Assembly: GCF_003334405.1 (NCBI RefSeq)
Contig: NZ_QOWM01000005.1
DNA length: 64,000 nt
Strand: one strand, 5' to 3'
Source: Escherichia coli
GTDB lineage: Bacteria > Pseudomonadota > Gammaproteobacteria > Enterobacterales > Enterobacteriaceae
In this document: positions 27,425 to 34,113 of the stretch, piece by piece
Layout: every line of letters starts with the position of its first letter
Numbering within the stretch: the first letter of the stretch is position 1
Program-made: the position numbers and the translations under genes
The notes under the pieces: model-generated
Seen by the model: the letters and a program-made list of their open reading frames with translations, nothing else
Databases searched by the model: none
What the model was told of the DNA's origin: nothing

Positions 27425-28111
27425 CTACTTCTGCCCGTAATAAGCGTTAGGACCGTGTTTACGCATGAAGTGTTTATTCATCAGGAAGCTGTCGATGTGA
27501 TTGAGTTGTGGATTAATACTGCGCGCAATCCACGCCATTTTCGCCACTTCTTCCATCACTACCGCGTTATGCACCGCGTCGTGGGCATCTTTCCCCCAGG
27601 CGAACGGTCCGTGCTGATACACCACAATTCCCGGCGTATGCAGCGGCTCGGCGTTGCCCAGCGTTTCGATAATCACTTTGCCAGTGTTCAGTTCGTACTC
27701 ACCCTGCACCTCTTCTTCGCTTAATCCGCGCGTGCACGGGATATCACCAAAGAAGTAGTCAGCGTGCGTGGTGCCTAACGCCGGGATCGCCAGCCCCGCC
27801 TGCGCCCATGCGGTGGCATGAGTGGAGTGGGTATGGACAATGCCGCCAAGCGACGGGTAACGACGGTAGAGTTCGAGATGCGTCGCGGTGTCGGAAGATG
27901 GGCGATACTCCCCTTCCACCACCTTGCCGCTCATATCAACCACCACCATATCGGCCGCTTTCATGGTTTCGTAGGCAACGCCGCTGGGCTTGATCACCAC
28001 CAGCCCGCGTTCGCGGTCGATAGCGCTGACGTTGCCCCAGGTAAAGGTCACCAGCCCGTAGCGCGGCAGCTCCATGTTGGCTTCAAATACCTGCTGTTTT
28101 AGCTTTTGCAT
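27425..28111 (-). CDS. ulaF: L-ribulose-5-phosphate 4-epimerase UlaF (SgaE)
   Basis: Track ORF to 28159; ATG (28111-28109) gives [19 protein letters not shown], 228 aa as recalled; start shares a base with the ulaE stop (TAATG). Confidence 0.92.
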
Positions 28112-28965
28112 TATGCCGCCTCCACCATGCCCGCTTTCGCCATGCGCGCTTTCACCCAATCACGCGCTTTCGCCACTTCTGCCGCCGGGTCTTCCGCCGT
28201 TTCGCTCCACATCTCAATCAGGTACGGCCCGCAATAGCCACTCTGTTTGAGCGTTTCGAAACAACGTTCGAAATCCACCACGCCTTCGCCAAACGGCACG
28301 TTTTTGAAGACGCCCGGTTTGGTGTCTTTCACATGTACCGCGACGATATGCCCGATTCCGGCCTGCAACTCCATCTGCACGTCGTTGTCCCACGCCGAGA
28401 GGTTGCCGATATCCGGGTAGAGCTGGAACCACGGGTTGTTGAGATAGTGCGCGTAGCCCAGCGCCTTGCTGATGGAGTTCATCAATGGGTAATCCATGAT
28501 CTCCATCGCCAGCGTCACCTGCGCGCGGCTTGCCATCTCAACGCTCTCTTTCAGGCCGTCACGGAAACGACGACGCGTTTCGTTATTGGCTTCCTGATAG
28601 TAAACGTCATAGCCCGCCAGTTGGATCACGCGAATACCGACATCCTGGGCGAACTGGATAGCTTTACGCATAATCTCCAGCCCCTGCGCCCGCACCGCGT
28701 CATCTTCACTGCCCAGCGGGAAACGACGATGAGCAGAAAGGCACATGGACGGCACGCGCACGCCGGTTTCAACAATCGCGTTCACCAGCGCCAGACGCTG
28801 CTCGCGGCTCCAGTCGAGGCGCGACAGGCGCTCGTCCGTTTCATCTACCGACATCTCGACAAAATCGAAGCCCAACGTTTTTGCCAGTTGCAGGCGTTCC
28901 AGCCAGCACTCCCCGGCGGGGAGCGCTTTTTCATAGATGCCAAGCGGGATTTGTTTGGACAACAT
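28111..28965 (-). CDS. ulaE: L-ribulose-5-phosphate 3-epimerase UlaE (SgaU)
   Basis: 284-aa [28 protein letters not shown]...; xylose-isomerase-like TIM barrel. Confidence 0.93.
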
Positions 28966-28974
28966 ATCCGCTCC

Positions 28975-29625
28975 TTAGCCCCACAGTTCGGCGATGGAAC
29001 GTTTGAACTGACGTGCAGCTTCAACCGGAGAAGCGGCATCACGGATGCTGCGACCAGCGATAAACACATGAATCGGAATACCTTTGAACAGCGGCAGATC
29101 TTCCAGCGCCAGGCCACCGGTGACGGTGACTTTGAAGCCCATATCGGAAAGACGTTTGATCGCGGTAATGTCCGCTTCGCCCCACGCTACGCCTGCGGCC
29201 TGCGCGTCACGGCTGCGGTGATAAACCACCTGCTGAATGCCTGCGTCACGCCACTGCTGCGCCTGTTCCCAGGTCCAGTAGCCGGTCAGTTCGATCTGCA
29301 CGTCGCCGTTAAACTCTTTTGCTACGTCCAGCGCGCCTTTGGCGGTGTTGATATCCGCACAGCAAATTACCGTCACCCAGTCAGCGTTGGCTTCGAAGCA
29401 CATACGAGAGAGGATTTTGCCCGCATCGGCAATTTTGGCGTCTGCCAGTACGATTTTGTGCGGGTAAAGCGCTTTCAGATCGCGAACCGCACGCACGCCT
29501 TCGCCCACGCACAGAATGGTACCCACTTCGATAATGTCGACTTCTTCGGCAATCAGGCGAGTGGTTTCGTAGGCGCTATCCATAGTCTGGTTGTCCAGCG
29601 CGACTTGTAACATCGGTAATGACAT
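28975..29625 (-). CDS. ulaD: 3-keto-L-gulonate-6-phosphate decarboxylase UlaD (SgaH)
   Basis: Track ORF to 29778; ATG (29625-29623) gives [20 protein letters not shown], 216 aa as recalled; AAGAAGGA upstream. Confidence 0.92.
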
Positions 29626-29638
29626 CTTCAATTCCTTC

Positions 29639-31831: not shown

Positions 31832-32185
31832 AACGATCTCCTGAAGAAGAGGTAACCGGGTATTCCGCACACCCGGAATGTTGTGCACTCACTCTAATTT
31901 TCAAAAGTAATCACAACAAGATTATTTATGATTAAATGTGACGCGACCCGCAAATAATTCCACACGGATAGAGTGGGATTCACATAACGAAACAATTATT
32001 TATTTAAATTCATTTAGTTAATTTAACTACACATTCCATTAAATCTTTCCACACTCAAAATCAACAACAACTTACCTGGCAAAAAGTCAAAAAATGGTCA
32101 TTGCCTTCCTGAAAAAATAGTGTCAGGATTAATCAAAACCAATCACATATTGATTCGAATTGAACTATCATGAAGGTAAATGGCG
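31832..32185. promoter_or_regulatory. Divergent ulaG / ulaABCDEF control region
   Basis: 354-bp AT-rich intergenic region between divergent ulaA and ulaG starts; in E. coli this region is known to carry both promoters and UlaR/CRP/IHF sites. Individual sites not mapped here. Confidence 0.6.
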
Positions 32186-33250
32186 ATGAGTAAAGTGAAA
32201 AGTATCACCCGTGAATCCTGGATCCTGAGCACTTTCCCGGAGTGGGGTAGCTGGTTGAATGAAGAAATTGAACAAGAACAGGTCGCTCCTGGCACATTTG
32301 CGATGTGGTGGCTTGGCTGCACCGGGATCTGGTTAAAATCGGAAGGTGGCACCAACGTTTGCGTTGATTTCTGGTGCGGCACTGGCAAACAAAGTCACGG
32401 TAACCCGTTAATGAAACAGGGTCACCAAATGCAGCGCATGGCTGGCGTGAAAAAACTGCAGCCAAACCTGCGCACCACCCCGTTTGTTCTTGATCCGTTT
32501 GCGATTCGCCAGGTCGACGCGGTACTGGCGACTCACGATCACAACGATCATATCGACGTCAACGTCGCTGCTGCTGTGATGCAGAACTGTGCTGATGACG
32601 TACCGTTCATTGGACCGAAAACCTGTGTGGATTTGTGGATTGGCTGGGGCGTACCGAAAGAGCGTTGCATCGTGGTCAAACCGGGCGATGTTGTAAAAGT
32701 GAAAGACATTGAAATTCATGCGCTTGACGCTTTCGACCGTACTGCACTGATCACCCTGCCTGCCGATCAAAAAGCGGCTGGCGTACTGCCGGACGGCATG
32801 GACGATCGCGCGGTGAACTATCTGTTCAAAACGCCTGGCGGCTCCCTGTATCACAGCGGCGACTCCCACTACTCTAACTATTATGCGAAGCACGGTAACG
32901 AACATCAGATCGACGTGGCTTTAGGTTCATACGGCGAAAACCCGCGCGGTATCACCGACAAAATGACCAGCGCCGATATGCTGCGTATGGGTGAAGCCCT
33001 GAATGCGAAAGTGGTTATCCCGTTCCACCACGATATCTGGTCAAACTTCCAGGCCGATCCGCAAGAGATCCGCGTGCTGTGGGAGATGAAAAAAGATCGC
33101 CTGAAGTATGGCTTCAAGCCGTTTATCTGGCAGGTTGGCGGCAAATTTACCTGGCCGTTGGATAAAGACAACTTCGAGTACCACTATCCGCGTGGTTTCG
33201 ATGATTGCTTCACTATTGAACCGGATCTGCCGTTCAAGTCATTCCTGTAA
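32186..33250 (+). CDS. ulaG: L-ascorbate-6-phosphate lactonase UlaG (metallo-beta-lactamase fold)
   Basis: ATG 32186 gives [23 protein letters not shown], 354 aa as recalled; HDHNDH metal-binding motif. Confidence 0.93.
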
Positions 33251-33357
33251 TCTGTCGTTTATACCGGATAGCGTGGAGTAGTTCGCGCTATCCGGCGTAG
33301 TATTTCCTGGCTATTTCAAATATCATCTAAAAAAATCAAATTTTATCGGAATAGCTC

Positions 33358-34113
33358 ATGACTGAAGCACAAAGACATCAAATCCTCCTGGAAATGCTCG
33401 CACAATTGGGCTTTGTGACCGTTGAGAAAGTCGTTGAGCGTCTGGGAATTTCGCCTGCCACTGCGCGACGCGATATCAATAAACTTGACGAAAGCGGCAA
33501 ACTGAAAAAAGTGCGCAATGGCGCAGAAGCTATTACCCAACAGCGCCCGCGCTGGACGCCGATGAATCTGCATCAGGCGCAGAATCACGATGAAAAAGTA
33601 CGTATCGCTAAAGCGGCCTCGCAGCTGGTTAATCCGGGCGAAAGCGTAGTCATCAACTGCGGCTCCACCGCGTTTCTGCTTGGGCGGGAAATGTGTGGCA
33701 AGCCAGTGCAAATCATCACTAATTATCTACCGCTGGCAAATTACCTGATCGATCAAGAACATGACAGCGTGATCATTATGGGCGGACAGTACAACAAAAG
33801 TCAGTCCATCACTTTAAGCCCGCAGGGCAGCGAAAACAGTCTCTATGCCGGGCACTGGATGTTTACCAGCGGCAAAGGACTGACAGCAGAAGGGTTGTAT
33901 AAAACCGATATGCTGACGGCAATGGCAGAGCAGAAGATGCTGAGCGTGGTAGGGAAACTGGTGGTACTGGTTGATAGCAGTAAGATTGGCGAACGCGCGG
34001 GAATGCTTTTTAGCCGTGCCGATCAAATTGATATGCTGATCACCGGCAAAAATGCTAACCCGGAAATCCTGCAACAACTGGAAGCGCAAGGGGTCAGCAT
34101 TCTGCGTGTTTAA
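33358..34113 (+). CDS. ulaR: DeoR-family repressor UlaR
   Basis: 251-aa [46 protein letters not shown]... (N-terminal HTH). Confidence 0.93.

Follow-up and report, generated by a model that had tools for sequence, protein, structure and literature searches.

The closest known system to the locus described here is the L-ascorbate (ula) regulon of Escherichia coli K-12 MG1655, which comprises ulaR (b4191), ulaG (b4192) and ulaABCDEF (b4193-b4198), genes formerly named yjfQ, yjfR and sgaTBAHUE. The K-12 spacer between ulaA and ulaG holds both promoters together with sites for UlaR, CRP and IHF (PMC5934670; bioRxiv 10.1101/2020.09.08.288738). A second system, the yiaK-S (sgb) cluster of aerobic ascorbate and L-xylulose metabolism, shares the decarboxylase, 3-epimerase and 4-epimerase chemistries through the paralogous SgbH, SgbU and SgbE, but it is without a phosphotransferase system (PTS), the UlaG lactonase and UlaR, and it occupies a different chromosomal site. 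Here we examine positions 27425-34113 of a 64,000-nucleotide stretch of E. coli DNA (contig NZ_QOWM01000005.1 of assembly GCF_003334405.1), which as a whole we call the window. Judged from its sequence, this segment is almost certainly the known chromosomal ula regulon of E. coli, carried as a common allele without disabling mutation.

Gene coordinates were transferred to the window from the RefSeq annotation of K-12 MG1655 and of strain 300709 (NZ_CP025903.1), which is 100% identical here, and every gene was compared with K-12 by script. Six genes lie on the minus strand: ulaF, for L-ribulose-5-phosphate 4-epimerase (27425-28111; 228 residues); ulaE, for L-ribulose-5-phosphate 3-epimerase (28111-28965; 284 residues); ulaD, for 3-keto-L-gulonate-6-phosphate decarboxylase (28975-29625; 216 residues); ulaC, for the ascorbate PTS enzyme IIA (29639-30103; 154 residues); ulaB, for enzyme IIB (30113-30418; 101 residues); and ulaA, for enzyme IIC, the membrane permease (30434-31831; 465 residues). 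The plus strand carries ulaG, for the Mn-dependent L-ascorbate-6-phosphate lactonase (32186-33250; 354 residues), and ulaR, for the DeoR-family repressor of the regulon (33358-34113; 251 residues). This order and these strands agree with K-12 and with the RefSeq annotation. Beyond gene content, order, orientation and gene lengths, the window and K-12 MG1655 have in common the 354-bp spacer, a TAATG overlap and the flanking genes yjfP and yjfY-rpsF. What separates them is 190 single bases, 13 amino acid substitutions and nine substitutions in the control region.

A preliminary description of the window, made from its letters alone, had reported eight full-length open reading frames (ORFs) without frameshift and had proposed alignment with the K-12 ula region as a check. 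That alignment is collinear, with neither a frameshift nor a premature stop. The block measures 6689 bp in both sequences and aligns without a gap, with 190 substitutions (97.2% identity). Each of the eight genes is as long as its K-12 counterpart and has an ATG start, the same stop codon as there and no internal stop. Its ends are exact, position 27425 closing the ulaF stop codon and 34113 that of ulaR. The compact junctions noted earlier are likewise real: the ulaE stop and the ulaF start overlap by one base in TAATG (junction sequence GGCATAATGCAA), and the remaining junctions in the operon measure 9-15 bp, each with a Shine-Dalgarno-like AGGA or GGAG. Both ulaG and ulaR had been called divergent; this stands for ulaG, which faces ulaA, and not for ulaR, which has the orientation of ulaG and lies 3' of it. 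At the level of sequence the pathway is supported as intact, and from this we infer that the strain ferments ascorbate. Such fermentation would depend as well on CRP and on the general PTS components EI and HPr (genes ptsI and ptsH), all of them encoded outside the ula locus.

The working of the regulon has been established for K-12 (PMC5934670; bioRxiv 10.1101/2020.09.08.288738), and we apply it here by near-identity. UlaA (IIC), UlaB (IIB) and UlaC (IIA) would form a PTS that imports L-ascorbate as L-ascorbate-6-phosphate. UlaG would open the lactone of this intermediate to give 3-keto-L-gulonate-6-phosphate, which UlaD would decarboxylate to L-xylulose-5-phosphate. The 3-epimerase UlaE and the 4-epimerase UlaF would then convert L-xylulose-5-phosphate to D-xylulose-5-phosphate, which would enter the pentose phosphate pathway. 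The DeoR-type UlaR, bound to operators in the 354-bp region, would repress both ulaG and ulaABCDEF and be released by L-ascorbate-6-phosphate, with activation by cyclic AMP (cAMP)-CRP and with repression assisted by IHF.

The residues on which this chemistry would depend are in place. Cys9 is present in UlaB and His68 in UlaC, and UlaD keeps Glu33, Asp62, Lys64, Asp67, His136 and Arg139; we take these to be the catalytic or phosphoryl-transfer positions, numbered as in the K-12 proteins. None of the 13 substitutions relative to K-12 falls on any of these checked residues. UlaG aligns from end to end (residues 1-354; E = 2.8e-257) with the E. coli UlaG whose structure has been solved (2wyl/2wym), and it carries the motif HDHNDH (HxHxDH) at residues 117-122, within which His119 and Asp121 have been named as metal-site residues (PMC3219644).

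The allele is not unusual. We compared window positions 27000-34900 (7901 bases) by megablast with all complete RefSeq E. coli genomes (n = 5426), and the locus was matched in every one of them, with at least 80% found in one place in 5347. Across all 7901 bases, the 25 records listed show 100% identity to the window, and the genes annotated there include ulaA, ulaG, ulaE, ulaR and yjfP. Strain 300709 and many commensal and livestock isolates are among those identical over this span, with no ula difference at all. A frameshift masked by a sequencing error is unlikely, given that so many independent assemblies agree. Over the 7.9 kb, identity of at least 99% is seen in some 816 genomes; for ulaC by itself the same level is reached in 1460 genomes, and for the control region in 1487.

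Divergence from K-12 is unevenly spread along the locus. Counted per 200 bp, it amounts to 19-23 differences in ulaC, up to 18 in mid-ulaA, up to 12 at the ulaD-ulaE junction and 0-9 over most of the remainder. There are local peaks of about 9-11% at 29800-30050 (ulaC) and 31300-31550 (ulaA), and the rest of the locus is 97-99% identical. The proteins show a comparable distribution, with six of the 13 amino acid changes in UlaC, three in UlaE and one each in UlaA (H264N), UlaD (G131Q), UlaF (G198S) and UlaG (I110V); UlaB and UlaR are the same as in K-12. Across E. coli, ulaC alleles range from roughly 80 to 100% identity, and the elevated divergence in ulaC and mid-ulaA suggests the ordinary recombinational mosaicism of the species. 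It could be argued instead that the allele is functionally distinct from that of K-12 in transport kinetics, regulation or substrate range, given the six UlaC changes, UlaD G131Q, UlaA H264N and the nine control-region substitutions. On that view, the sharp rise of divergence in ulaC and mid-ulaA could be due not to neutral mosaicism but to a gut-colonization locus having undergone diversifying selection or recombination. We consider this very unlikely. As only 13 of the 190 nucleotide differences alter an amino acid, purifying selection on a working locus is indicated.

The control region between ulaA and ulaG had been described as AT-rich and 354 bp long, and so it is: it occupies 31832-32185, has the K-12 length and contains 34.7% G+C, against 51.7% for the window. 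In a profile of the sequence, the G+C fraction dips to 0.31-0.38 at about 31750-32200, compared with about 0.52-0.60 in the flanking genes. The region is 97.5% identical to that of K-12, with nine single-base changes at 32074, 32052, 32027, 32024, 32001, 32000, 31985, 31965 and 31867, most of them in the middle of the spacer.

A repeat search found a motif, TGTGATTnnTTTTGA, that adjoins the start of each of the divergent genes ulaA and ulaG. The ulaA-proximal copy is the 15-mer TGTGATTACTTTTGA (31901-31915, minus strand), which is unchanged from K-12; the ulaG-proximal copy, TGTGATTGGTTTTGA, is nearly identical to it and lies 232 bp away (32133-32147, minus strand). Each is a candidate UlaR operator. 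With up to two mismatches to TGTGATTNNTTTTGA allowed, the entire window contains six matches against 1.7 expected, and four of the six lie in ula non-coding DNA, at 31901-31915, 32133-32147, 32055-32069 and 33326-33340. The last of these (minus strand), just upstream of ulaR, is a weak copy with two mismatches in AT-rich sequence and could be due to chance. On sequence grounds we regard all four as candidate UlaR operators. The best CRP-like site, TGCGGGTCGCGTCACA (31937-31952, minus strand), lies upstream of ulaA, has two mismatches to TGTGAN6TCACA and is unchanged from K-12; its match to the consensus points to a putative CRP-binding role. A scan for the IHF consensus gave only one-mismatch matches, in very AT-rich sequence.

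In K-12 there are operators at both promoters, and repression proceeds by UlaR-mediated looping aided by IHF. Campos and colleagues reportedly mapped the UlaR, CRP and IHF sites of the K-12 control region in 2004. The positions of the motif fit such an arrangement, with operators at both promoters and looping between them. By genomic SELEX (systematic evolution of ligands by exponential enrichment), UlaR has been found to bind the ulaG/ulaA spacer as well as a site upstream of ulaR (PMC5934670). The copy at 33326-33340, and the set of motif copies overall, are consistent with that binding pattern (PMC5934670).

No result contradicts the identification of the segment as the ula regulon. Some points limit the assignment of these elements as its control sites. 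Two of the matches to the motif had served to define it, and the sequence in which it occurs is AT-rich, so that the copies stand as candidate operators. A sigma-70 consensus scan of 31700-33500 returned a single weak match, where 2.7 would be expected by chance. That match was considered as a promoter and rejected: it overlaps the ulaG ribosome-binding site, and the count is below the chance expectation.

It may be asked whether the ula genes merely look intact, while the regulon itself is silent or altered, for example non-inducible or constitutive, through missense changes or through the nine changes in the control region. Those nine substitutions and the 13 in the proteins lend this some substance, as does the local nucleotide divergence of about 9-11% in ulaC and part of ulaA. 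Yet the nine control-region changes all fall outside the repeated TGTGATTnnTTTTGA motif and outside the best CRP-like site, the checked catalytic residues are retained, and the differences are mostly synonymous (190 nucleotides against 13 amino acids), as expected of a functional locus under purifying selection. The same alleles are, moreover, common at the level of at least 99% identity, whether the full 7.9 kb, ulaC or the control region is considered. We regard a silent or altered regulon as extremely improbable and retain the reading of a common, undamaged ula locus.

Assignment to protein families tells the same story at the level of each product. In a comparison of their translations with NCBIfam, all eight products exceed the curated cut-off of their own Ula-family model: UlaF reaches 507.2 bits on NF009003.0 (cut-off 331), UlaE 514.5 on TIGR00542 (272), UlaD 338.8 on NF009832.1 (250), UlaC 342.6 on NF007694.0 (187), UlaB 230.4 on NF007586.0 (138), UlaA 470.7 on NF006919.1 (380), UlaG 714.8 on NF008688.0 (306) and UlaR 485.8 on NF010034.0 (244). 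Since UlaD, UlaE and UlaF have the paralogues SgbH, SgbU and SgbE, UlaD also matches a second decarboxylase model, NF009831.0, and UlaF matches araD-type models, one might suppose that the name ula is a mislabelling, and that the cluster is instead the yiaK-S (sgb) system for L-ascorbate and L-xylulose or some other sugar-acid cluster with a PTS; this is scarcely credible, because the secondary matches stay under their own cut-offs (274.5 against 294 bits for NF009831.0; 385.0 against 389.1 for araD TIGR00760), so that confusion with yiaK-S/sgb or ara paralogues is excluded, while the window proteins score best on the Ula models and well above their cut-offs, the cluster has the ulaABC PTS genes, ulaG and ulaR that the yia cluster is without, and collinearity with K-12 b4191-b4198 refutes it.

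Two hairpins may mark the ends of transcripts. Between ulaG and ulaR, a hairpin at 33264-33295 (plus strand) has a 14-bp stem in which eight of the 14 pairs are G-C, and the 107-bp spacer that contains it folds at -33.6 kcal/mol (z = -4.4). This hairpin probably ends or insulates the ulaG transcript, and it fits ulaR as a separate transcription unit, rather than one simply divergent together with ulaG. Just 3' of the ulaF stop, a terminator-like hairpin followed by CGUUUUUC occupies 27368-27421 (minus strand); the 95-nucleotide stretch that holds it folds at -39.5 kcal/mol (z = -4.1), and none of 200 shuffled sequences folds as well. It is a probable end of the ulaABCDEF transcript, its fold and position suggesting a role as terminator. 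Adjoining it is the yjfY terminator, GCCCCCTTCTCAGGGGGC-T7, at 27337-27354. An Rfam scan at the gathering threshold found no RNA family match in 27300-34900. In other parts of the window the scan placed an RpsF leader at 26691-26775 (minus strand), 5' of rpsF, and further matches at 3239-3418 (plus), 6770-6892 (minus) and 59156-59452 (minus), comprising the small RNAs ES036 (CssrF), STnc450 and ES239 and three tandem tRNA genes. The latter are tRNA-Gly genes in the RefSeq annotation of strain 300709, from which the spacers between them differ slightly.

The regulon has the same neighbours as in K-12: yjfP beyond ulaR, and yjfY-rpsF-priB-rpsR-rplI beyond ulaF. In the RefSeq annotation, yjfY lies at 27021-27296 (plus strand), and yjfP, at 34110-34859 (minus strand), is convergent with ulaR, the ends of the two genes overlapping by 4 bp. 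A six-frame ORF listing of 25500-36500 shows minus-strand ORFs packed tightly over 27425-31888, then a gap, then plus-strand ORFs at 32180-33250 and 33358-34113. The ORFs delimited mechanically are slightly longer than the genes, starting upstream of the annotated starts of ulaF, ulaD, ulaB, ulaA and ulaG, which is normal and has no effect on the conclusion of intactness. At ulaG there is an in-frame ATG two codons 5' of the annotated start (ATG GCG ATG, 32180-32188), so that the mechanical ORF encodes 356 residues against the annotated 354; the nine spacer substitutions relative to K-12 all lie elsewhere, and the lengths of ulaG and of the spacer upstream equal those of K-12. An ORF of 425 codons on the plus strand (28333-29610), antisense to ulaD and ulaE, was considered as an overlapping gene and rejected: K-12 has this frame only in two pieces, of 243 and 180 residues, and we therefore take the ORF to be an unconserved shadow of coding DNA rich in G+C.

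Outside the ula locus, a few single-base and short-indel differences separate the window from strain 300709, the two being 99.97% identical by BLAST over window positions 14016-64000. The yjfL gene of the window (about 39434-39832) contains, at 39723, a C that strain 300709 lacks, and RefSeq marks yjfL of that strain as "frameshifted"; by this comparison the window probably holds an intact yjfL, the copy in strain 300709 being broken or mis-sequenced. Between ytfB and rplI lies a block of about 9.8 kb (15359-25142) that is absent from K-12 at the same position. It encodes a TetR regulator, a 3-ketoacyl-ACP (acyl carrier protein) reductase, a sugar-phosphate isomerase/epimerase, an enoyl-CoA (coenzyme A) hydratase, an acyl-CoA:acetate/3-ketoacid CoA-transferase, an FAD (flavin adenine dinucleotide)-dependent oxidoreductase and a three-part TRAP transporter. 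The block is complete (at least 80%) in 1448 of the 5426 genomes, and some others have only about 68% of it, namely the portion that excludes the TRAP genes. In its CoA-transferase gene, at 19789, GTAACG stands once in the window and twice in strain 300709, an in-frame 6-bp difference in a tandem repeat.

Nothing new about the ula system emerges from this locus; the regulon is already known and serves as a positive control. It had been put forward as such for the annotation approach, and as an intact textbook regulon whose bounds were placed exactly to the base it proves well suited to that use. A textbook eight-gene regulon was recognized from raw sequence, with its bounds, its gene overlap and the length of its spacer all correct, and this supports trust in the gene-level calls made elsewhere in the window. 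As for the organism, the sequence leads us to expect L-ascorbate fermentation in this strain, as in essentially all E. coli.

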